Shown here piece after piece: positions 15,910 through 30,352 of a DNA stretch of 38,890 nt (position 1 is its first letter; the number at the start of each line of letters is the position of its first letter). The translations under genes were made by a program, and so were the position numbers. The DNA comes from Escherichia phage ECA2: sequence record NC_047766.1. One strand, 5' to 3'. The notes beneath the pieces are model-generated. The model was not told the origin of the DNA. It saw only the letters and a program-made list of their open reading frames with translations, and did no database searches.

Positions 15910-16046
15910 GGACTTAAAGCTACTATATAGGTTAGTCATTCAGGTTATGCAATGACCCTTTATGCACTTTGAGTCTACCTCTGTGATTGGTGATATTATC
16001 ATTGTATAATCACCCTACCTTAGAGCAACTGAAAGGAGGTGGCTCA

Positions 16047-16196
16047 ATGTTACGCTTGCTGATTGCCCTGCTGCGTCATAGAGTCACTTGGCGATTTCTT
16101 CTGGTACTTACTGCTGCCCTTGGGTACGCAGGTCTTACTGACCACCTCGGTCAACTGGAAGTGGCCTTTTGCTCTATACTCTCTTGTGGGGATTAA
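16047..16196 (+). CDS. 19.5: gp19.5-like small hydrophobic protein
   Basis: 49 aa from ATG 16047 with RBS AAAGGAGGTG; position between phiOR and the terminal repeat as in T7. Confidence 0.6.
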   Translation: MLRLLIALLRHRVTWRFLLVLTAALGYAGLTDHLGQLEVAFCSILSCGD

Positions 16197-16453
16197 ATTA
16201 TTGTTGATGAACGACAAGCGGCTCTGAGGGATTCGTAGGTATAGTTTCACTACACCAACTCATCCCTGTAGAGTCAACCCTAAAGGTTACACCTAAAGAT
16301 GCCCTGTAGTTCGTAATGGTCTTACAGGGTCTTTAAGTGTCTCCTAGCTGTCCCTTCGGGATGCGCCTGTGGTCTCACCTATGGTGCGGCCTCACCTAAA
16401 GTGGTTGCCTAAAGAGACCCTTTAAGAATTTACCACAAAAATCTGAATGGGTA

Positions 16454-16690
16454 TCTCACAGTTCAAGAACCCAAAGTACCCCCCCATAGCCCTCCTAAAG
16501 CCACCTAAAGCCAGCCCTACCCCTCTGGTTTAACCTTCGGTTAACCTTGGTATCTCCTAAAGTGGCCTATAGGATAGCCTAAAGTGTTGCCTAAAGTCAA
16601 TCCCTAAAGTGATGGCTGCCTATTGGAGACTTAAAGAGTGTCCTAGTGTACCAGTTCGATAGTACATCTCTATGTGTCCCTATCTGTTAG
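16454..16690 (+). repeat. Direct terminal repeat region; probable physical left end at about 16454 (single collapsed copy)
   Basis: Begins TCTCACAGTTCAAGAACCCAAAGTACCCCCCC and ends near GTGTCCCTATCTGTTAG, resembling T7/T3 terminal repeat boundaries; boundaries approximate. Confidence 0.55.
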
Positions 16691-16699
16691 CCTCTTAAA

Positions 16700-16790
16700 G
16701 TAAACCCTAAAGCCGCCACCTAAAGACCAGACCTAAAGCCACCACCTAAAGACCAGACCTAAAGCCACCACCTAAAGAGCGCCGCTATCT
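16700..16790 (+). repeat. Short-repeat array (CCTAAAG units, including a duplicated 26-bp block) right of the terminal repeat
   Basis: Repeated CCTAAAG / ACCTAAAGACCAGACCTAAAGCCACC units. Confidence 0.85.
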
Positions 16791-16855
16791 TAAAGACAAC
16801 CAGACCGATAGACCCACTGTTAGCCTGTAGTGATGCCTTGTAGTTATCTGTAGTC

Positions 16856-16884
16856 AATTCAATTACCCTCACTAAAGGGAATAG
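16856..16884 (+). promoter_or_regulatory. Phage RNAP promoter phiOL
   Basis: CAATTCAATTACCCTCACTAAAGGGAATAG. Confidence 0.75.
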
Positions 16885-16935
16885 AGGATACTTAAAGAGG
16901 GAATAAGGGATTTAATACAAGATTTAAATTAATGG

Positions 16936-16965
16936 TTGACTTTAAGTTACCTTTAAGGCTATTAT
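16936..16965 (+). promoter_or_regulatory. Host sigma70 early promoter, A1-like
   Basis: -35 TTGACT (16936-16941), -10 TATTAT (16960-16965), 18-bp spacer. Confidence 0.65.
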
Positions 16966-17064
16966 TCATCTCGTCAACGGGACAACGGCCTTAAAGCCAC
17001 TCCCTGAGATACCGGAGTCAACCGGATAAGTAGACAGCCTGATAAGTCATACGAAAAACAGGCA

Positions 17065-17094
17065 TTGACAACATGAAGTAACATGCAGTAAGAT
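17065..17094 (+). promoter_or_regulatory. Host sigma70 early promoter, A2-like
   Basis: -35 TTGACA, 18-bp spacer, -10 TAAGAT; TTGACAACATGAAGTAACATGCAGTAAGAT matches recalled T7 A2. Confidence 0.8.
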
Positions 17095-17175
17095 GTACCA
17101 CATAACATTAACCACCGCTCCGGTGTCTTCTAGGTGACTTAAGCGCACCACGGCACATAAAGCGAAACAAAATGG

Positions 17176-17204
17176 TTGACAACATGAAGTAAGCACGGTA
17201 CGAT
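17176..17204 (+). promoter_or_regulatory. Host sigma70 early promoter, A3-like
   Basis: -35 TTGACA, 17-bp spacer, -10 TACGAT; matches recalled T7 A3. Confidence 0.8.
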
Positions 17205-17390
17205 GTACCACATGAAAGACACCGAGTGTCGTAGGTGTAAAAACGCGACATAGTGGATAGATGGCGAAAGCACAAGCGACCACGATAATAAAGAGCTTGT
17301 CGCACTTATAACGCAAGTGACGGCTAACACTGAAATAGCCTCGGCTCAACGAAACTGTAGCCTAAAGTTCTTTAACAATCTGGATAATAG

Positions 17391-17450
17391 CTCTTGAGTG
17401 CACGAATAGCGGATAACTCAAGGGTATCGCAAGGTGCCCTTTATGATATC
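17391..17450 (+). ncRNA. RNase III processing site (R0.3-like) upstream of gene 0.3
   Basis: CTCTTGAGTGCACGAATAGCGGATAACTCAAGGGTATCGCAAGGTGCCCTTTATGATATC, near-identical to recalled T7 R0.3. Confidence 0.75.
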
Positions 17451-17481
17451 CACTAACACTACACACAATGAGGTAACACAA

Positions 17482-17847
17482 ATGGCTATGTCTAACATGA
17501 CTTACAGCAACGTTTTCGCCCACGCTTACGAAATGCTGAACGAAAACATTCGTTATGATGATACCCGTGACACTGATGGTCTTAGTGACGCAATTCATGA
17601 GGCAGCAGATAGCGCCGTTCCGCACTATTACAGTGACATTTTCAGTGTAATGGCAAGCGATGGCATTGACCTTGAGTTCGAAGATTCCGGTCTTATGCCG
17701 GACACCAAGGACGTGACCTGTATTCTACAAGCACGCATCTATGAGCAACTCACGATTGACCTTTGGGAAAAAGCTGAGGACTTACTCAACGAATACCTTG
17801 AGGAAATCGAAGAGGAGGAAGAGGAAGTCGAAGAGGACGAAGAGTAA
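17482..17847 (+). CDS. ocr: Ocr (gp0.3) DNA-mimic anti-restriction protein
   Basis: Start ATG 17482 with RBS GAGGT; [27 protein letters not shown]...acidic C-terminus matches recalled T7 Ocr. Confidence 0.92.
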
Positions 17848-17999
17848 TGGCTACCACCACGCAATATGGTCTGACCGCTCAAACTATACTGTTCTACAGC
17901 GATATGGTGCGCTGTGGCTTCGATTGGCCGCTCGCAATGGCACAACTTAAGGAACTGTACGAACACAACAAGGCAATCGCTTTAGGGGATGCTGAGTGA
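17847..17999 (+). CDS. 0.4: gp0.4 (T7 FtsZ inhibitor homologue)
   Basis: 50 aa, [50 protein letters not shown], matches recalled T7 gp0.4; ATG overlaps the ocr stop. Confidence 0.85.
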   Translation: MATTTQYGLTAQTILFYSDMVRCGFDWPLAMAQLKELYEHNKAIALGDAE

Positions 18000-18000
18000 T

Positions 18001-18045
18001 AGACTCAAGGTCGCACTGTATGTGTGGCCTTTATGATTATCACTT
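18001..18045 (+). ncRNA. RNase III-type processing hairpin
   Basis: AGACTCAAGGTCGCACTGTATGTGTGGCCTTTATGATTATCAC. Confidence 0.65.
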
Positions 18046-18067
18046 TTGACTATGAAGGAATCACACC

Positions 18068-18352
18068 ATGCGCTTAAATAAAGACACAGCGGTAGCTATG
18101 TGGTCAGCAATCGAATCCAGAGCCGCACACAACGTGGGAGGGATTGCTGATGTTGCACGGGCTTATGAGGAGAAAGGCCTAACATTCCGTAGATTTATGT
18201 GGGACTGTTACCATGCAGTAGGCTTTAAAGAGACGACCAGAATAATCACTGAGCACAACACAGTTACGTTAATAGGTGGGCATCTAACTGACGTGGCTGA
18301 TGCACATATCGAAACAATACTCAAGGTTGCACTTAAAGATTTGAAATACTAG
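18068..18352 (+). CDS. Hypothetical early protein (94 aa)
   Basis: ORF with ATG and weak RBS, bracketed by two RNase III-type hairpins; no recognisable motif. Confidence 0.6.
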   Translation: MRLNKDTAVAMWSAIESRAAHNVGGIADVARAYEEKGLTFRRFMWDCYHAVGFKETTRIITEHNTVTLIGGHLTDVADAHIETILKVALKDLKY

Positions 18353-18354
18353 TG

Positions 18355-18398
18355 TTAAACTAAAGGTCGCACTATGAGTGAGGCCTTTATGATTAACA
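18355..18398 (+). ncRNA. RNase III-type processing hairpin (second copy)
   Basis: AAACTAAAGGTCGCACTATGAGTGAGGCCTTTATGATTAACA, closely similar to the site at 18001. Confidence 0.6.
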
Positions 18399-18415
18399 TT
18401 ACAGGAGAGCATGAT

Positions 18416-18496
18416 ATGTTCGAGAAGGTTGTGAACTGGTCTATCGGGCCGATTATCATCTTAATCATTATGAACAACTTAGGGTATTTCTCATGA
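18416..18496 (+). CDS. Small hydrophobic peptide (26 aa), hypothetical
   Basis: MFEKVVNWSIGPIIILIIMNNLGYFS; RBS GGAGAG; stop overlaps the next ATG. Confidence 0.35.
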   Translation: MFEKVVNWSIGPIIILIIMNNLGYFS

Positions 18497-18690
18497 TGGC
18501 AGCACTAATCGCACTGGTCTATCTGTGCATCGCAATGTACTTTATGCGAGACTTTAAGCGCGGTCTGGCAATACACAAGGCAACGCTGAGTTACTTTAAG
18601 TGGGGATTCATCCCACGGTTTACGGTTCGTGAACGTAACGGACGTTTTAAAGCCAATAAAGTTGGCATCTTCCACATCGCAACGCACTAA
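18493..18690 (+). CDS. Hypothetical early membrane protein (65 aa)
   Basis: N-terminal hydrophobic segment (MMAALIALVYLCIAMYF); position between 0.4 and 0.7. Confidence 0.5.
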   Translation: MMAALIALVYLCIAMYFMRDFKRGLAIHKATLSYFKWGFIPRFTVRERNGRFKANKVGIFHIATH

Positions 18691-18711
18691 TTAACATAAG
18701 GACACATTGAA

Positions 18712-19821
18712 ATGACTTTCACCGAAGCACAAGCAGCACTCGAAGCTATCCGCAACCTACCGATTGAGCGCCTGAACGAACGCCAGACTACGCTGGTGAC
18801 TCTTGCGGCTGCTATCGTGAACGCTGAGACTCAAGACGGCGAACTGACGCAGGCAGCAGGAAACACGTCGCTAGAAGATATGGACTACTGGCAGACACTG
18901 GCGGAGCGCATGAGGGATGTTGGTTTCATCAAGCTAGGAAATGGTCACTTTAGCGCAGCGTATGAGCACGCATTGTTGCCGGGCAAGGTTATCAAGGTAG
19001 GCTTTAAGAAAGAGGACTCAGGCGCAGCCTATGCAGCCTTCTGCCGCATGAACCAAGGCCGGGAAGGTATCCCTACGGTGTACGACATTCAGCGTCATGC
19101 TGGTTGTTACACGGTGGTTCTTGATTATCTGAATCCGCTTAACTACTGGTGCGATGGTGAGAGTGACAAGGTTCGTCACCACGTCAAGGCCGCACGGGAA
19201 ATCATTGAGGAGGATTGCTTTGATGCTGCCGAAGAGTACCCGATAAGCGAGGGCTTTATTGAGACCTGCAAGGACATTCGCAAGTTCTTCTTAGGCATCG
19301 CATCGTTCGAGTGTCACAGCGGGAACATGATGAAAGACCAGATGGGACGCCTGATTATCACAGACCCGGTATCATTCAGCGCAGACGACAAGTTAAAGCC
19401 GGGTGAGTTCCACTGCGACCCTGATGAACTCATCGCTGAGATTGAGGCGCTGAGAGCGCAGGAAGCGATTGACCGCTGTAAGGCACGTAAGGCACGCCGT
19501 GACCCTAAAGGAGACTTTCAAGTAGCGCGTAAAGCACGCATCAAGTGGCGCAGAAAGGCCTCTAAGCGTGCGAAGCGCAACGCTAAGTTACTCGCTAGGA
19601 TGCGCATGGACGACAATCAGAATCGCAGGGATGAGCATAGGGCGCGTATGGTGTTGGGCGATAAGCACTGGCGCAACGCTTGGATGCACCACAATAACCT
19701 AAACTTTGCAGAACTGGAGCGCCGCGCTGCTGCGGCAATGATGATGCACGACGAGGTGCGCATTCAGTGGGGCAAACCGTTACACATAGACGCATACCTT
19801 GACAAGCGTCTACAAGGCTGA
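18712..19821 (+). CDS. 0.7: Protein kinase / host shutoff protein (gp0.7)
   Basis: 369 aa; motifs GNGHFSAAYEH, VIKVGFKKEDSGAAYAAFCRM, RHAGCYTVVLD, basic C-terminal half; matches recalled T7 gp0.7. Confidence 0.93.
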   Translation: MTFTEAQAALEAIRNLPIERLNERQTTLVTLAAAIVNAETQDGELTQAAGNTSLEDMDYWQTLAERMRDVGFIKLGNGHFSAAYEHALLPGKVIKVGFKKEDSGAAYAAFCRMNQGREGIPTVYDIQRHAGCYTVVLDYLNPLNYWCDGESDKVRHHVKAAREIIEEDCFDAAEEYPISEGFIETCKDIRKFFLGIASFECHSGNMMKDQMGRLIITDPVSFSADDKLKPGEFHCDPDELIAEIEALRAQEAIDRCKARKARRDPKGDFQVARKARIKWRRKASKRAKRNAKLLARMRMDDNQNRRDEHRARMVLGDKHWRNAWMHHNNLNFAELERRAAAAMMMHDEVRIQWGKPLHIDAYLDKRLQG

Positions 19822-19880
19822 TAGAGTCTTATCTCACAGGTCATCAATCGGTGGCCTGAATAGGTACGATTTATTCACAA
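19822..19880 (+). ncRNA. Possible RNase III site (R1-like) upstream of gene 1
   Basis: CAGGTCATCAATCGGTGGCCTGAATAGG hairpin-capable sequence in the 0.7-1 intergenic region. Confidence 0.4.
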
Positions 19881-19891
19881 TGAGGTAAGCA

Positions 19892-22546
19892 ATGAACATC
19901 ATCGAAAACATCGAAAAGAATGACTTCTCCGAAATCGAACTGGCTGCTATCCCGTTCAACACACTGGCAGACCACTACGGCAGCGCATTGGCTCGTGAAC
20001 AACTGACTTTAGAGCATGAGTCTTATGAGCTAGGCGAGCGCCGCTTCCTCAAGATGCTTGAGCGTCAAGCAAAAGCTGGTGAGATTGCAGACAACGCAGC
20101 CGCTAAGCCATTACTCGCTACGCTTCTCCCTAAGTTAACCACACGTATCGTCGAGTGGCTCGAAGGGTACGCATCGAAGAAAGGCCGCAAGCCTAGCGCA
20201 TACGCACCGCTCCAGTTACTCAAGCCGGAAGCCTCCGCGTTTATCACCCTGAAAGTTATCCTTGCGTCACTGACCAGCACGAACATGACAACCATTCAGG
20301 CCGCTGCTGGTATGCTGGGGAAGGCCATTGAGGATGAGGCACGTTTCGGGCGCATCCGTGACCTCGAAGCGAAGCACTTCAAGAAGCACGTTGAGGAACA
20401 GCTTAACAAGCGCCACGGGCAAGTCTACAAGAAAGCCTTTATGCAGGTGGTAGAGGCCGATATGATTGGTCGAGGCCTGCTTGGAGGTGAGGCGTGGTCT
20501 AGCTGGGACAAGGAAACAACGATGCACGTAGGGATTCGCCTGATTGAAATGCTGATTGAATCCACGGGTCTGGTGGAATTACAGCGCCACAACGCAGGCA
20601 ACGCAGGCTCTGACCATGAGGCACTGCAACTGGCCCAAGAGTACGTCGATGTGCTAGCGAAGCGTGCAGGAGCACTGGCGGGTATCTCTCCGATGTTCCA
20701 GCCGTGTGTCGTACCGCCGAAACCTTGGGTAGCAATCACAGGTGGCGGCTATTGGGCTAACGGTCGCAGACCTTTGGCACTCGTTCGCACTCACTCTAAG
20801 AAGGGCTTGATGCGCTATGAGGATGTTTACATGCCAGAAGTTTACAAGGCGGTCAACATCGCACAGAACACCGCATGGAAAATCAACAAGAAAGTTCTTG
20901 CGGTTGTCAATGAGATTGTGAACTGGAAGAACTGCCCGGTCGCAGACATTCCATCTCTGGAGCGCCAAGAGTTACCGCCTAAGCCGGACGACATTGACAC
21001 CAACGAGGCAGCACTCAAGGAGTGGAAGAAAGCCGCCGCTGGTATCTACCGCTTGGACAAGGCACGAGTGTCTCGCCGTATCAGCTTAGAGTTCATGCTG
21101 GAGCAGGCAAACAAGTTTGCAAACAAGAAAGCAATCTGGTTCCCTTACAACATGGACTGGCGCGGTCGTGTGTACGCTGTGCCGATGTTCAACCCACAAG
21201 GCAACGACATGACGAAAGGTCTGCTGACCCTCGCTAAAGGCAAGCCAATCGGTGAGGAAGGTTTCTACTGGCTGAAAATCCACGGTGCGAACTGTGCGGG
21301 TGTCGATAAGGTTCCTTTCCCTGAGCGCATCGCGTTCATTGAGAAGCACGTAGACGACATTCTGGCTTGCGCTAAAGACCCAATCAATAACACTTGGTGG
21401 GCCGAGCAGGATTCACCTTTCTGTTTCCTCGCGTTCTGCTTCGAGTATGCAGGCGTTGCGCACCACGGTCTGAGCTACAATTGCTCACTGCCGCTGGCGT
21501 TCGACGGGTCTTGCTCTGGTATCCAGCACTTCTCCGCGATGCTGCGCGATGAGGTAGGCGGTCGTGCGGTTAACCTGCTGCCAAGCGAAACCGTGCAGGA
21601 CATTTACGGCATCGTTGCACAGAAGGTGAACGAGATTCTCAAACAGGATGCAATCAACGGCACACCTAACGAGATGATTACCGTGACTGATAAGGACACC
21701 GGGGAAATCTCAGAGAAGCTCAAGCTGGGAACCTCAACGCTGGCGCAACAGTGGCTGGCATATGGTGTAACCCGTAGCGTAACTAAACGTTCGGTCATGA
21801 CGCTGGCTTACGGTTCCAAGGAGTTCGGCTTTCGTCAACAGGTATTGGACGACACCATTCAGCCTGCGATTGACAGCGGTAAGGGCTTGATGTTCACCCA
21901 ACCGAACCAAGCGGCTGGCTATATGGCTAAGCTGATTTGGGACGCGGTGAGCGTGACCGTAGTCGCAGCGGTTGAGGCGATGAACTGGCTCAAGTCTGCC
22001 GCTAAGCTGCTGGCTGCTGAGGTCAAGGACAAGAAGACCAAGGAGATTCTGCGTCACCGTTGCGCGGTTCACTGGACTACGCCGGACGGCTTCCCGGTAT
22101 GGCAGGAATACCGCAAGCCACTCCAGAAGCGTCTCGATATGATTTTCTTAGGGCAATTCCGTCTGCAACCGACGATTAATACCCTCAAGGATTCAGGCAT
22201 TGACGCACACAAGCAGGAGTCTGGCATCGCTCCTAACTTTGTTCACTCACAGGACGGTAGCCACCTCCGCATGACAGTCGTTTATGCTCACGAGAAGTAT
22301 GGCATTGAGTCCTTTGCGCTGATTCACGATAGCTTCGGGACTATCCCGGCAGACGCTGGCAAGCTGTTCAAGGCTGTGCGTGAAACGATGGTCATTACCT
22401 ACGAGAACAACGATGTGCTGGCAGACTTCTATGACCAGTTTGCAGACCAGTTGCACGAGACCCAACTGGACAAGATGCCTCCACTTCCGAAGAAAGGAAA
22501 CCTGAACCTGCAAGACATTCTCAAGTCTGACTTTGCCTTTGCATAA
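19892..22546 (+). CDS. 1: Single-subunit DNA-dependent RNA polymerase, T3-type
   Basis: 884 aa; N-terminus MNIIENIEKNDFSEIELAAIPFNTLADHYG and overall sequence match recalled T3 RNAP; promoters in the genome are T3-type. Confidence 0.97.
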   Translation: MNIIENIEKNDFSEIELAAIPFNTLADHYGSALAREQLTLEHESYELGERRFLKMLERQAKAGEIADNAAAKPLLATLLPKLTTRIVEWLEGYASKKGRKPSAYAPLQLLKPEASAFITLKVILASLTSTNMTTIQAAAGMLGKAIEDEARFGRIRDLEAKHFKKHVEEQLNKRHGQVYKKAFMQVVEADMIGRGLLGGEAWSSWDKETTMHVGIRLIEMLIESTGLVELQRHNAGNAGSDHEALQLAQEYVDVLAKRAGALAGISPMFQPCVVPPKPWVAITGGGYWANGRRPLALVRTHSKKGLMRYEDVYMPEVYKAVNIAQNTAWKINKKVLAVVNEIVNWKNCPVADIPSLERQELPPKPDDIDTNEAALKEWKKAAAGIYRLDKARVSRRISLEFMLEQANKFANKKAIWFPYNMDWRGRVYAVPMFNPQGNDMTKGLLTLAKGKPIGEEGFYWLKIHGANCAGVDKVPFPERIAFIEKHVDDILACAKDPINNTWWAEQDSPFCFLAFCFEYAGVAHHGLSYNCSLPLAFDGSCSGIQHFSAMLRDEVGGRAVNLLPSETVQDIYGIVAQKVNEILKQDAINGTPNEMITVTDKDTGEISEKLKLGTSTLAQQWLAYGVTRSVTKRSVMTLAYGSKEFGFRQQVLDDTIQPAIDSGKGLMFTQPNQAAGYMAKLIWDAVSVTVVAAVEAMNWLKSAAKLLAAEVKDKKTKEILRHRCAVHWTTPDGFPVWQEYRKPLQKRLDMIFLGQFRLQPTINTLKDSGIDAHKQESGIAPNFVHSQDGSHLRMTVVYAHEKYGIESFALIHDSFGTIPADAGKLFKAVRETMVITYENNDVLADFYDQFADQLHETQLDKMPPLPKKGNLNLQDILKSDFAFA

Positions 22547-22557
22547 CAAGCACTTAG

Positions 22558-22581
22558 CATTAACCCTCACTAACGGGAGAC
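22558..22581 (+). promoter_or_regulatory. Phage RNAP promoter (phi1.05-like)
   Basis: CATTAACCCTCACTAACGGGAGAC. Confidence 0.85.
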
Positions 22582-22632
22582 TACTTAAGGTCTCCCACTT
22601 GAAGACACTTTAGGTACTAAGAGATTAAATTT

Positions 22633-22905
22633 ATGATTAACATTAAGACTTTCTTTAAGAGCATCTTTAAGTTAAACCGCTTGACTTCCGTTAAGTTCTA
22701 CGCTTGGATGCCCGGTAGTGATGACCTCCGCAAGACTGAATTTAAGCTAGGCTTAGGGCCATGTGGTAAGGTGGTCACGAAGTTGGAATGTTACTCAACG
22801 TCCTCCGGGATGGTCATCTTCCAGACCACTGAGGACAACGAAATGAAATCCTTCTACTACCCGAAAGGTTCAACGTGTGGTCGTATCGAACGGACATACA
22901 GTTAA
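22633..22905 (+). CDS. Hypothetical protein (90 aa) in the gene 1 / 1.1 intergenic (origin) region
   Basis: ORF downstream of a phage promoter; AT-rich 5' end; no recognisable motif; weak RBS. Confidence 0.45.
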   Translation: MINIKTFFKSIFKLNRLTSVKFYAWMPGSDDLRKTEFKLGLGPCGKVVTKLECYSTSSGMVIFQTTEDNEMKSFYYPKGSTCGRIERTYS

Positions 22906-22923
22906 CCATCACTAACGGGAGAG
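22900..22923 (+). promoter_or_regulatory. Phage RNAP promoter (phi1.1-like)
   Basis: AGTTAACCATCACTAACGGGAGAG. Confidence 0.75.
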
Positions 22924-22924
22924 T

Positions 22925-22968
22925 TAAACTTAAGGTCATCACCAACGGTGGCCTTTGTGATTAACTTT
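22925..22968 (+). ncRNA. RNase III site (R1.1-like)
   Basis: AAACTTAAGGTCATCACCAACGGTGGCCTTTGTGATTAAC. Confidence 0.65.
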
Positions 22969-22997
22969 CAATACACATCAACATGAGGTAAGATACT

Positions 22998-23138
22998 ATG
23001 CGTACCAACTTTGAGAAATTTACCAAGCGCGATTCAGTGGTCAACGAGCATGGCGAACAGTGGCAAGAGCGCCGTGACCGCATGAAGAAACGCCACAAGC
23101 AACAGCGCGGTAACTCACAGAAACGGGAGTGGAACTAA
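22998..23138 (+). CDS. 1.1: gp1.1 small basic protein
   Basis: 46 aa, MRTNFEKFTKRDS...; RBS GAGGTAAG; similar to recalled T7 gp1.1. Confidence 0.8.
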   Translation: MRTNFEKFTKRDSVVNEHGEQWQERRDRMKKRHKQQRGNSQKREWN

Positions 23139-23416
23139 TGATGATGGGACGTATCTATAGCGGCAACCTGAACGATTACAAAGACGCGGTAGCGCGTCTA
23201 CAGGAAGACCATGACGTGACCGTGAAGGTGGAGTCATTCAGCTATGAAAACCCAGCGAAGATGTGCAGGTCATCCGGTGAGGCTCTACGTGTGTTCACAC
23301 GCTCAGGGCATTTGGTGGCATCCAGAACCTTCGAGCACAGCGACAGCGATGTACAAATCAACGCGCAGACTGCATGGCTCCGTAAGGTTCACAGCGATTT
23401 GAAACACTGGAAGTAA
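23138..23416 (+). CDS. 1.2: gp1.2, inhibitor of host dGTP triphosphohydrolase
   Basis: MMMGRIYSGNLNDYK...DLKHWK matches recalled T7 gp1.2 termini; start among three tandem ATGs (23138/23141/23144) is uncertain. Confidence 0.85.
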   Translation: MMMGRIYSGNLNDYKDAVARLQEDHDVTVKVESFSYENPAKMCRSSGEALRVFTRSGHLVASRTFEHSDSDVQINAQTAWLRKVHSDLKHWK

Positions 23417-23437
23417 TAACCCTCACTAACAGGAGAA
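23414..23437 (+). promoter_or_regulatory. Phage RNAP promoter (phi1.3-like)
   Basis: TAATAACCCTCACTAACAGGAGAA. Confidence 0.8.
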
Positions 23438-23442
23438 ACGAC

Positions 23443-23859
23443 ATGAGAAACATCGAACGGTTCAACGCAAAGACTGAACCTTGCGGTGACTGTCTACGTT
23501 GGACTGGTCGAATCCAGCCTAACGGTTACGGACAGTTTCGCCTCGAAGGTAAAACACAATACGCACATCGAGCAGCTTACAAGCTGTTTATCGGTGAACT
23601 GGACAATAAAGATACAGTCCTTCACTCGTGCGACAACAGGTGGTGTGTGAACCCTGAGCATTTGACCAAGGGAACGCAGGCCGATAACCTGAAAGACATG
23701 GCGATAAAGGGTAGACACCACGCCATTAAGATTCCGAACGATGCCATTGAGGGCATCCGCAAAGACCCTCGCTCTTCCACTGTGATAGCGGCTGAGTGGG
23801 GCGTCCACCCAACAACCATCCATAAGATTAAGCGAAATATTAACAGGAGATTCGTATGA
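23443..23859 (+). CDS. HNH homing endonuclease (HNH_3-type) between promoter phi1.3 and the ligase gene
   Basis: 138 aa; motif AHRAAYKLFIGELDNKDTVLHSCDNRWCVNPEHLTKGTQADNLKDM; stop overlaps ligase start (ATGA). Confidence 0.8.
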   Translation: MRNIERFNAKTEPCGDCLRWTGRIQPNGYGQFRLEGKTQYAHRAAYKLFIGELDNKDTVLHSCDNRWCVNPEHLTKGTQADNLKDMAIKGRHHAIKIPNDAIEGIRKDPRSSTVIAAEWGVHPTTIHKIKRNINRRFV

Positions 23860-24872
23860 ACATTTTCAAGACCGCGCCATATAAAGCTGTATCCTTTGTT
23901 GAGTCTGCCGTGCGTAAAGCGCTGGAGACTTCCGGCTACCTGATAGCGGATTGTAAATATGACGGTGTTCGTGGAAACATTGTGGTTGACAACGTGGCTG
24001 AGGCCGCATGGTTGTCTCGCGTCTCCAAGTTCATCCCGGCGCTGGAACATCTGAACGGTTTCGATAAGCGCTGGCAACAACTGATGAATGATGACCGCTG
24101 CATTTTCCCTGATGGCTTCATGCTGGATGGTGAACTGATGGTCAAAGGCGTAGACTTCAACACGGGGTCTGGCCTGCTGCGTACCAAGTGGCTCAAGAAG
24201 AACAACTTCATGTTTGACCGTGGTGGTGTTGAGCCGCTGAAAGGTTCCAAAGTAGCCTTTGAGTTAGACCCTAAGCGCCTGAGTGTGCGCCTGTATGCGG
24301 TCATGCCGATTCACATTGCTGAGTCTGGCGAGGACTACGATGTGCAGAACCTCCTGATGCCATATCATGTGGAAGCCATGCGCTCTCTTCTGGTTGAATA
24401 CTTCCCGGAAATCGAGTGGCTTATCGCTGAGACCTACGAGGTCTACGATATGGATTCACTGACTGAACTGTACGAAGAGAAGCGTGCCGAAGGTCACGAG
24501 GGTCTCATTGTGAAAGACCCGCAAGGCATCTACAAGCGAGGCAAGAAGTCTGGCTGGTGGAAGCTAAAGCCTGAGTGTGAAGCTGATGGTATCATTCAGG
24601 GTGTCAATTGGGGAACCAAAGGGTTAGCCAACGAGGGTAAAGTGATAGGCTTTAGTGTGCTTCTTGAGACTGGTCGTTTAGTAGACGCCAACAACATCTC
24701 TCGCGCACTGATGGACGAGTTCACAGCCAACGTTAAAGCCCACGGTGAAGACTTCTACAACGGGTGGGCCTGTCAGGTCAACTATATGGAAGAGACCCCG
24801 GACGGCTCCCTGCGTCACCCTAGCTTCGAGAAGTTCCGAGGCACTGAGGACAACCCTCAAGAGAAAATGTAA
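23856..24872 (+). CDS. 1.3: ATP-dependent DNA ligase (gp1.3)
   Basis: 338 aa; adenylation motif KYDGVRG; strong match to recalled T7 ligase. Confidence 0.95.
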   Translation: MNIFKTAPYKAVSFVESAVRKALETSGYLIADCKYDGVRGNIVVDNVAEAAWLSRVSKFIPALEHLNGFDKRWQQLMNDDRCIFPDGFMLDGELMVKGVDFNTGSGLLRTKWLKKNNFMFDRGGVEPLKGSKVAFELDPKRLSVRLYAVMPIHIAESGEDYDVQNLLMPYHVEAMRSLLVEYFPEIEWLIAETYEVYDMDSLTELYEEKRAEGHEGLIVKDPQGIYKRGKKSGWWKLKPECEADGIIQGVNWGTKGLANEGKVIGFSVLLETGRLVDANNISRALMDEFTANVKAHGEDFYNGWACQVNYMEETPDGSLRHPSFEKFRGTEDNPQEKM

Positions 24873-30000: not shown

Positions 30001-30285
30001 ATGAGCAAGTCAATCACTCACGCAAACACCATCCGTCTGCCAGACACCGCCGACCAGTTCTCCCGCCGAGTACACATCAATGTGCGTGGCGAGAAGGTCA
30101 CGATGGTCTACCGCTGGAAAGACCACAAGTCTCCGAAAGCACACACTCAACGAATGACCTTGGATGACAAGCAGGTCGGTCGCTTGATGGGTGCCCTGAC
30201 TATGGCTGCTGACAAGGTGGTAGGTGACAACCGTGAGCGTCTGGTAGAGTTCGGCGCTGGTATGCAAGAGATTATCGAGAAGTGA
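30001..30285 (+). CDS. 4.5: gp4.5
   Basis: 94 aa; RBS AAGGAG; synteny. Confidence 0.8.
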   Translation: MSKSITHANTIRLPDTADQFSRRVHINVRGEKVTMVYRWKDHKSPKAHTQRMTLDDKQVGRLMGALTMAADKVVGDNRERLVEFGAGMQEIIEK

Positions 30286-30326
30286 TAAACTCAAGGTCGC
30301 CCAAGGGTGGCCTTTATGATTATCAT
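30286..30326 (+). ncRNA. RNase III site (R4.7-like) upstream of gene 5
   Basis: AAACTCAAGGTCGCCCAAGGGTGGCCTTTATGATTATC. Confidence 0.7.
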
Positions 30327-30352
30327 TTAGCACGAAACCAAAGGAGGGCATT

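Follow-up and report, generated by a model that had tools for sequence, protein, structure and literature searches.

Between two similar hairpins in the early region of Escherichia phage ECA2 lies a short open reading frame (ORF). The locus raises the question of whether this ORF is a gene in its own right, what the hairpins do, and whether gene and hairpins have moved between phages as a unit. The DNA analysed here, called the window, is the whole 38,890-nucleotide (nt) stretch of sequence record NC_047766.1. The ORF runs on the + strand from an ATG at 18068 to 18352, and its 94-amino-acid (aa) product is 100% identical to a protein deposited for ECA2 as a 'hypothetical protein'. It is flanked on the same strand by hairpins Ra (17993-18044) and Rb (18349-18400). 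A sequence-only reading of the window had placed the 94-aa ORF here between hairpins sharing two strings, and both its coordinates and the strings proved correct: AAGGTCGCACTGTATGTGTGGCCTTTATGATTA is found at 18007-18039 within Ra and AAGGTCGCACTATGAGTGAGGCCTTTATGATTA at 18363-18395 within Rb.

The best overall explanation, to which we assign a probability of roughly 60%, is that the ORF is an accessory gene bounded by RNase III sites, exchanged as a cassette at these hairpins, and that it may encode an inhibitor of host defence. It was already known that the gene is deposited as a hypothetical protein and that the hairpins are of a textbook kind. What is new is that an orphan protein family is tied to hairpin-bounded exchange, and that its predicted fold is unmatched in the libraries searched.

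The gene and its flanking hairpins

A low ratio of nonsynonymous to synonymous substitution rates (dN/dS), full-length homologues, conserved motifs and a Shine–Dalgarno sequence together show that the ORF is a real accessory gene, kept by selection in phages of the T7/T3 group (Studiervirinae plus a few other Autographiviridae). In all 15 pairs of six close orthologues dN/dS was 0.08-0.17, with dS up to 0.88. The phrog_9817 profile, whose function label is 'unknown', matches the ORF over its full length (E=1.4e-40, residues 1-94 against profile positions 1-93 of 94). A tblastn search of 50,697 phage records recovered full-length homologues in 60 of them. Identity is 79-89% for Teetrevirus, Teseptimavirus and Apdecimavirus, falls to about 54% for Kayfunavirus and lies at 44-50% for Przondovirus, Ermolevavirus and unclassified Klebsiella phages. 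An alignment of 42 members keeps the same length and the motifs TFxRFxWD and DxHIETxLK down to 41% identity, and its 17 invariant positions are clustered in G-L-T-F-x-R-F-M-W-D and D-x-H-I-E-T-M-L-K. The Shine–Dalgarno sequence GAAGGA, read from the sequence at 18054-18059 (+ strand), has its core AAGGA at 18055-18059, 8 nt upstream of the ATG, and is also present ahead of the orthologue in Teseptimavirus JB01.

Two residues of the ECA2 protein stand out in this alignment. Codon 12 (18101-18103) encodes Trp where at least 90% of the 42 members have Arg, and Ala77 occupies a position at which most members carry Asn. These could be functional variants, adaptations or sequencing errors.

The phrog_9817 family is rare, sporadic and restricted to phages. 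A profile hidden Markov model search of 1.84 billion representative proteins returned only 35 clusters. Save for one marginal match (a 1,286-aa protein hit in short segments, E=9e-4), all are stand-alone proteins of 73-131 aa with the RFxWD and DxHI[ED]T motifs, and no informative domain fusion was found among the representatives. The family is absent from 72,556 plasmids by tblastn. Its sole match in 185,579 bacterial genomes is one 2.7-kb contig of a metagenome-assembled genome, phage-like in appearance, and in IMG/VR it occurs in 7 of 2.9 million contigs. All homologue-bearing phages with a stated Gram-negative host infect Enterobacterales; one homologue record is labelled as an Enterococcus phage, which looks like a mislabel.

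The RNase III recognition stem-loops annotated in the T3 GenBank record (R0.3, R0.5, R1, R1.1, R1.3, R3.8, R4.7, R6.5, R13 and R18.5) provide the reference for Ra and Rb. A hairpin alignment was built from 19 sites of ECA2, T3, T7 and three relatives, including the annotated T3 R0.3, R0.5, R1.1 and R4.7 and T7 R0.3 and R0.5, and the fold predicted by ViennaRNA was imposed on it (8-bp lower stem, internal loop, 10-bp upper stem). Pairing in this alignment is 97% canonical, with compensatory double changes at 9 of the 18 pairs. None of 500 shuffles reached the observed pairing, and partners slid by 1-3 columns paired in at most 52% of cases. An Rfam scan of 16000-24000 (E<=1) returned no family. 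To our knowledge the T7 RNase III sites are not an Rfam family, and a dedicated covariance model was therefore built from the 19-site alignment. This model finds at least eight sites in the window: 17406 (R0.3), 17993 (Ra; 73 bits, E=2e-16), 18349 (Rb; 67 bits), 19837 (R1, weak), 22918 (R1.1), 30279 (R4.7), 34171 (R6.5) and 13056 (R18.5).

Judged from their sequences, Ra and Rb are RNase III-type sites and homologues of T3/T7 R0.5. The earlier description of them as RNase III-type hairpins was borne out in this way, through homology to the R0.5 annotated in T3 and through RNA covariation. Each folds as a two-stem hairpin with an internal loop, with energies of -23.6 kcal/mol for Ra (z=-3.7) and -21.1 kcal/mol for Rb (z=-4.4), and none of 200 shuffles folded as well. 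Ra is 89% identical to T7 R0.5 and 100% identical to Ra of phage phiYe-F10, while Rb shows 83% identity with T3 R0.5 and 87% with the downstream site of Serratia phage 2050H2; against T3 R0.5, the two sites together show 83-86% identity by blastn and 78% in the alignment core.

The stem and loop plan of Ra and Rb is that of T7/T3 R0.5 and of the wider T7-group family (R0.3, R1, R1.1, R1.3, R4.7, R6.5 and R18.5). Both sites share with R0.5 an internal loop that reads ACUCAAGG on its 5' side and CCUUUAUGAU on its 3' side, a place between cistrons on the transcribed strand, and an upstream stop codon that falls within the 5' arm. Ra separates a gp0.4-like gene, whose stop TGA (17997-17999) falls within its 5' arm, from the ORF. 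Rb separates the ORF, whose stop TAG (18350-18352) falls within its lower stem, from a 0.5-like gene, and both lie 3' of the promoter-like sites A1–A3. The difference is one of number: the junction holds one R0.5 hairpin and no ORF in T3, T7 and Klebsiella phage 6998, but two hairpins that enclose a gene in ECA2.

By analogy with T7, it is very probable that the ORF is a monocistronic unit cut by RNase III from an early polycistronic RNA, which would be ordinary T7-group biology. Host RNase III would cut both hairpins on the 3' side of the internal loop. Textbook T7 sites place the predicted cleavage of Ra in UAUGAU, on that side of the loop at about 18032-18037, and that of Rb at about 18388-18393. 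Cleavage at both sites would release an ORF mRNA of about 356 nt, with its 5' end about 33 nt ahead of the ATG and with hairpin Rb retained at its 3' end as a shield against exonucleases. In the textbook picture of T7, reportedly due to Dunn and Studier (1983), a cut made 3' within the internal loop lets the upstream message keep the hairpin as its 3' end. Mayer and Schweiger, in the same year, reportedly found that the T7 kinase stimulates RNase III (their paper is among the references of PMC13645617). The stop codons of the ORF and of the gp0.4-like gene, lying within the 5' arms, are consistent with this textbook processing picture.

Probable exchange at the hairpin boundaries

Comparison with relatives makes it probable that the ORF behaves as a cassette with the hairpins as its boundaries. 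Homology blocks were defined by pairwise blastn of 17300-19900 against related phages. In Serratia phage 2050H2, where an S-adenosylmethionine (SAM) hydrolase gene replaces ocr and gene 0.4, homology sets in at 17995, the first base of Ra. In Klebsiella phage 6998, which has a SAM hydrolase gene but no ORF, it sets in at 18351, the first base of Rb. At the other end, homology to T7 stops at 18059, shortly after Ra, that to EG1 at 18400, where Rb ends, and that to phiYe-F10, phiCFP-1 and E-4 at 18369, within the 5' arm of Rb. A third hairpin, with further small ORFs behind it, is present in phiYe-F10, phiCFP-1, E-4, EG1 and F5M1C.

The covariance model was also used to check 22 loci that carry a homologue. 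A hairpin lies directly on both sides of the homologue in 14 of them, including Kayfunavirus Vec13, whose sites were outside the training set of the model. In every Teetrevirus, Teseptimavirus and Apdecimavirus locus, and in Vec13, the hairpin on the downstream side begins 3 nt short of the ORF's end. In Teseptimavirus JB01 (628-1030) an 80% identical ORF occupies the R0.3 slot, between A3 and ocr, and both of its flanking hairpins have the R0.3-type upper stem GGGTATCGCAAGGTGCCC; the flanking sites therefore adopt the character of the site resident in the slot. The JB01 record mis-annotates ocr as 'receptor binding protein kinase'.

In six phages (phiYe-F10, phiCFP-1, E-4, AP10, Ayanbimpe and F5M1C) the hairpin behind the ORF combines an upper stem GGTCGTTAG/TAGCGGCC with loops ACTACAGG and CCTGAATGAT. 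The post-ORF hairpins of phiYe-F10, F5M1C and Ayanbimpe are 85-89% identical to the hairpins that follow the orthologue in Kayfunavirus and only 63-69% identical to R0.5-type sites. Post-ORF hairpins of this kind, in several Teetrevirus and Apdecimavirus phages, lie at L001 1859-1910, L003 1722-1773, L013 1749-1800, L031 982-1033 and L032 982-1033, and their Kayfunavirus counterparts at L004 1205-1257 and, in Hafnia phage yong1, L034 976-1028. The proteins of these phages are only about 54% identical to the Kayfunavirus orthologues. Moreover, the C-terminus of the ORF product tracks the type of hairpin, DVAY (DIAY in phiYe-F10) going with the Kayfunavirus type and DLKY or DLQY with the R0.5 type. 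The Kayfunavirus-like hairpins point to a transfer of the gene together with its hairpin between genera. At the sequence level, these comparisons show that the ORF and its downstream hairpin travel together, and that in ECA2 this hairpin has been replaced by the resident R0.5-type site.

The sequence-only reading had described a cassette inserted together with its processing site. The cassette part stands, given the block edges at the hairpins, the single hairpin where the ORF is lacking, the JB01 slot and the travelling downstream hairpin. The pair is no private duplication, being part of a family of at least eight sites, and in ECA2 the hairpin type that travels with the ORF elsewhere has given way to the resident one.

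Furthermore, upper and lower stems assort independently, and the hairpins are chimeric. In phage 2050H2, Ra (1478-1529) combines the upper stem of T3 R0.5 (T3 1357-1408) with a T7-type lower stem, and Rb (1833-1884) combines the lower stem of T3 R0.5 with a T7-R0.5-like upper stem. Repeated exchange or conversion within hairpins, and no single simple crossover, therefore lies behind the junctions. An origin of ECA2 Rb by simple crossover between the Rc-type and Rb-type hairpins of phiYe-F10 was considered and rejected: the 5' arm is Rb-type throughout, and the Rc-type share amounts to one base (ACTAAAGG), which counts against a crossover origin.

The comparisons indicate that hairpins of about 50 bp double as portable homology, at which phages swap, lose and relocate single-gene units; general homologous recombination is the presumed route. 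The result is a concrete picture of remodelling in the first-entering region of T7/T3-like phages, namely single-gene swaps at RNase III sites that serve at once as processing signal and as homology for the swap. It also offers a rule for finding accessory pre-early genes: whatever an extra hairpin encloses. Lambdoid morons and integron cassettes are, like the ORF, single accessory genes that come and go as units between short structured repeats, the repeat of the ORF being a hairpin that provides expression punctuation as well as exchange homology. By this analogy the likeness is one of behaviour and not of membership. Lambdoid morons have their own promoter and terminator, neither of which is predicted at the ORF by consensus scan, and integron cassettes need an integrase and attC, whereas the ORF has no recombinase.

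In the same slot of relatives, hairpins enclose other small genes, belonging to phrog_13225, phrog_6500 and phrog_10124 and all of unknown function (L013 1825-2174, L012 2013-2213, L031 1022-1419, L001 1935-2087 and L004 1268-1522). These neighbouring cassette genes gave no functional lead. The slot seems to be a hot spot in which uncharacterised accessory genes collect.

Candidate function of the protein

The ORF product is a neutral protein of 10.6 kDa (isoelectric point, pI, 7.0) with 12 acidic and 12 basic residues. The AlphaFold2 model, based on the 42-sequence alignment, is confident, with a mean predicted local distance difference test score (pLDDT) of 91.9 and a predicted template modelling score of 0.80. 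Five helices are predicted (residues 5-20, 25-35, 40-51, 53-63 and 78-88), together with a short beta-hairpin around the invariant G70-G71. A structure-based homology search, which the sequence-only reading had suggested as a check, found no match to this five-helix fold in the structure libraries searched, and no significant similarity to a solved structure of an anti-defence protein was found in the PDB. The earlier remark that the ORF has no recognisable motif agrees with the result of scans of Pfam, NCBIfam and PADLOC and of a search of PDB sequences with the 42-sequence profile, none of which gave a significant match.

Several candidate identities were rejected. Matches to GlnE (E=0.2) and to an arenavirus nucleoprotein (E=0.11) are insignificant, and Annexin_2, hit in 7 of the 42 members (E=0.002), is below its cut-off and inconsistent across members. 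The label 'CNP C-terminal domain' in the record of Hafnia phage yong1 (701-979) was not reproduced by a Pfam scan of the 42 members. An Ocr-like DNA mimic was discarded because the product is neutral and not strongly acidic, and it has no PF08684 match. In the literature no paper mentioning phrog_9817 was found, and searches on pre-early and anti-defence genes of Autographiviridae gave nothing on the family; one literature lead, JSS1_004, is the gp0.7 kinase and not the ORF.

The invariant polar and aromatic residues (R42, W45, D46, N64, D78, H80 and E82) suggest a defined binding or catalytic site. The cluster formed by R42/W45/D46 and D78/H80/E82 might serve to bind a protein or a small signalling molecule.

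Further leads come from the genomic context. In Teetrevirus, Kayfunavirus, Przondovirus, Ermolevavirus and unclassified contigs, the homologue has an ocr or SAM hydrolase gene as its neighbour. Kayfunavirus genomes begin with the orthologue, which is followed directly by ocr in Hafnia phage yong1 and sits two genes 5' of ocr in Vec13. The next gene is likewise ocr in Klebsiella phage phi1_146006 and behind a distant metagenomic homologue, and it is the SAM hydrolase gene in the Przondovirus phages Oda and ZX8 as well as Ermolevavirus PGT2. On a 45-kb contig of Autographiviridae (L014 2177-2407), a Tad2-like gene (PF11195) and a Lambda_Kil gene share the early region with a 48% identical homologue.

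T7 Ocr, T3 SAM hydrolase and T7 gp0.4 have operon, timing and small single-domain character in common with the ORF product, and the gene for one of them directly adjoins the ORF in several genera; they differ from it in having no sequence or fold similarity to it. Small phage anti-defence proteins of solved structure, such as the Tad1, Tad2 and Acb2 sponges, resemble it: they are of similar length (about 90-120 aa), are expressed early, occur sporadically and have a few invariant residues that are aromatic or charged. From its position, its sporadic distribution and its restriction to phages, we tentatively suggest that the protein may inhibit a component of host defence. As far as context indicates, it would act early on a host component conserved in Enterobacterales. 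A bolder version seems unlikely to us. It would make phrog_9817 an anti-defence factor of new fold that sequesters an immune protein or signal of Enterobacterales, and the hairpins a general means by which genera swap pre-early counter-defence genes with no recombinase, every cassette coming with its own 3' processing and stabilising hairpin.

The strongest competitor to an anti-defence role, which we also regard as improbable, is that the protein is a general host-takeover factor directed at a housekeeping target (cell division, transcription, nucleases or metabolism) and not at the immune system. T7 gp0.4, gp2 and gp5.9 inhibit housekeeping targets. The ORF matches gp0.4, encoded directly upstream, in operon position and size class, and a Kil-type division inhibitor is found in the same early region of a distant relative. 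However, the gene is sporadic and absent from T3 and T7, a pattern that is more typical of strain-specific counter-defence than of takeover genes. Being rare, phage-only, under purifying selection, confidently folded and structurally unmatched, phrog_9817 is a good candidate for anti-defence and host-takeover screens.

Several points weigh against the ORF as an RNase III-bounded, exchangeable anti-defence cassette. Cleavage by RNase III at Ra and Rb is, for ECA2, a prediction from T7. The orthologue of Przondovirus has a weak upstream site only, and Ermolevavirus PGT2 and the 45-kb relatives have no recognisable hairpin nearby. The chimeric hairpins mean that one simple crossover cannot account for each junction, and the present sample gives no apparent direction (gain by insertion or loss by deletion) for individual events. 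As for function, the suggested host-takeover or anti-defence role draws on position and neighbours, and the adjacency to ocr or SAM hydrolase partly reflects the closeness of every pre-early gene to every other.

The hairpin pair and the early operon

The hairpins had been called near-identical, and their similarity could mark a fresh insertion, Ra and Rb being a recent local tandem duplication made when ECA2 acquired the ORF. The two do form a 48-nt direct repeat (17995-18042 and 18351-18398, 356 nt apart) with 83% identity, and the CGCAC carried by both upper stems suggests some local homogenisation. However, over the aligned core they are 82% identical, no closer than Ra is to R4.7 (30279-30327), 12 kb away, at 84%, and Ra is fully identical to its phiYe-F10 counterpart. 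The lower stems are of different types, T7-R0.5 in Ra (GTGATAG/TATCAC) and T3-R0.5 in Rb (GTGTTAA/TTAACAT), and the same layout is found in at least 13 other phages of four genera. A tandem duplication is thus very improbable. On these comparisons the similarity of Ra and Rb is that of a family consensus and not of a private duplication, since Ra is equally close to R4.7 and the lower-stem types differ; 'near-identical' needs this qualification. The pair belongs to a dispersed family because the gapped motif AAGGTCGC...GCCTTTATGATT has a third copy at 30293, ahead of the DNA polymerase gene (3 copies in the window, 0.00 expected), and the shorter core CCTTTATGATT, allowing at most one mismatch, has seven copies (0.44 expected).

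It is just as hard to credit that the hairpins act mainly as DNA, in the form of palindromes or recombination sites, or as terminators, and not as RNase III substrates. The palindromes of T7 RNase III sites can be sensed as DNA by Lamassu DdmABC, which they are reported to trigger (PMC11707656), and the edges of homology blocks coincide with hairpins. Nevertheless, G-U wobble pairs are frequent in the 19-site alignment and covariance scores are strand-specific, the + strand scoring about 70 bits and the - strand about 15; for these reasons the hairpin constraint acts on the + strand RNA. The sites are also homologous to T3 sites annotated as RNase III sites. Terminators are contradicted by the absence of a T-run after the stems and by a consensus scan that found no terminator-like site on the + strand at this locus. 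Each hairpin added with a cassette is a palindrome of the type reported to trigger Lamassu DdmABC (PMC11707656), and the gain of a cassette may carry a cost.

Finally, the notion that the ORF is open by chance, in a mere spacer that separates processing sites, with the RNA elements as the sole functional part, has in its favour nothing beyond the phiYe-F10 record leaving the ORF unannotated, and is reduced to a negligible possibility by the dN/dS of 0.08-0.17, the motifs that persist to about 41% identity in the 42 members (with more distant members recovered by the profile search), the confident AlphaFold2 model (pLDDT 91.9) and the conserved Shine–Dalgarno sequence.

The ECA2 genome is T3-like and circularly permuted in the window, and its nearest database records are Teetrevirus (T3-like) phages. 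The ORF sits in the class I (pre-early) operon, as its arrangement shows, which is read by host RNA polymerase from A1–A3. Three sigma-70 promoter-like sites on the + strand (16936-16965, 17065-17094 and 17176-17204, with 10/12 matches each) are spaced by 129 and 111 nt, the spacing of the annotated A1, A2 and A3 of T3, and correspond to the early promoters A1–A3 that drive the operon of the ORF. From A3 to the 3' end of the ORF, a scan by consensus only found nothing promoter-like; a weak match (9/12) lies just 3' of the ORF, at 18393-18420.

Upstream of the ORF on the + strand, the R0.3 hairpin (17406-17454; covariance model, 59 bits) precedes ocr and is near-identical to T7 R0.3. The ocr gene (gene 0.3), encoding an anti-restriction DNA mimic, was placed by translation at 17482-17847, its start being taken at MAMSNMTY, and its orthologues in phiYe-F10 and phiCFP-1 are annotated as 'ocr-like anti-restriction'. 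The 50-aa gp0.4-like gene (17847-17999; phrog_7202, E=2e-32) is collinear with T7 gene 0.4.

Downstream, a hydrophobic 26-aa mini-ORF (phrog_17444, MFEKVVNWSIGPIIILIIMNNLGYFS) at 18416-18496 on the + strand opens the next group of cistrons and is served by the Shine–Dalgarno sequence AGGAG at 18404-18408. Database records place its start at an ATG at 18374, within hairpin Rb, which is probably a mis-annotation. The mini-ORF is followed on the + strand by the gene 0.6 homologue (18493-18690) and the gp0.7 kinase gene (18712-19821), and after the kinase gene comes the RNA polymerase gene (19892-22546). The segment holding T3 gene 0.65 (1628-1782 in the T3 record) is absent from ECA2 (18690-18712) and from Klebsiella phage 6998, and in ECA2 gene 0.6 leads almost directly into the kinase gene.

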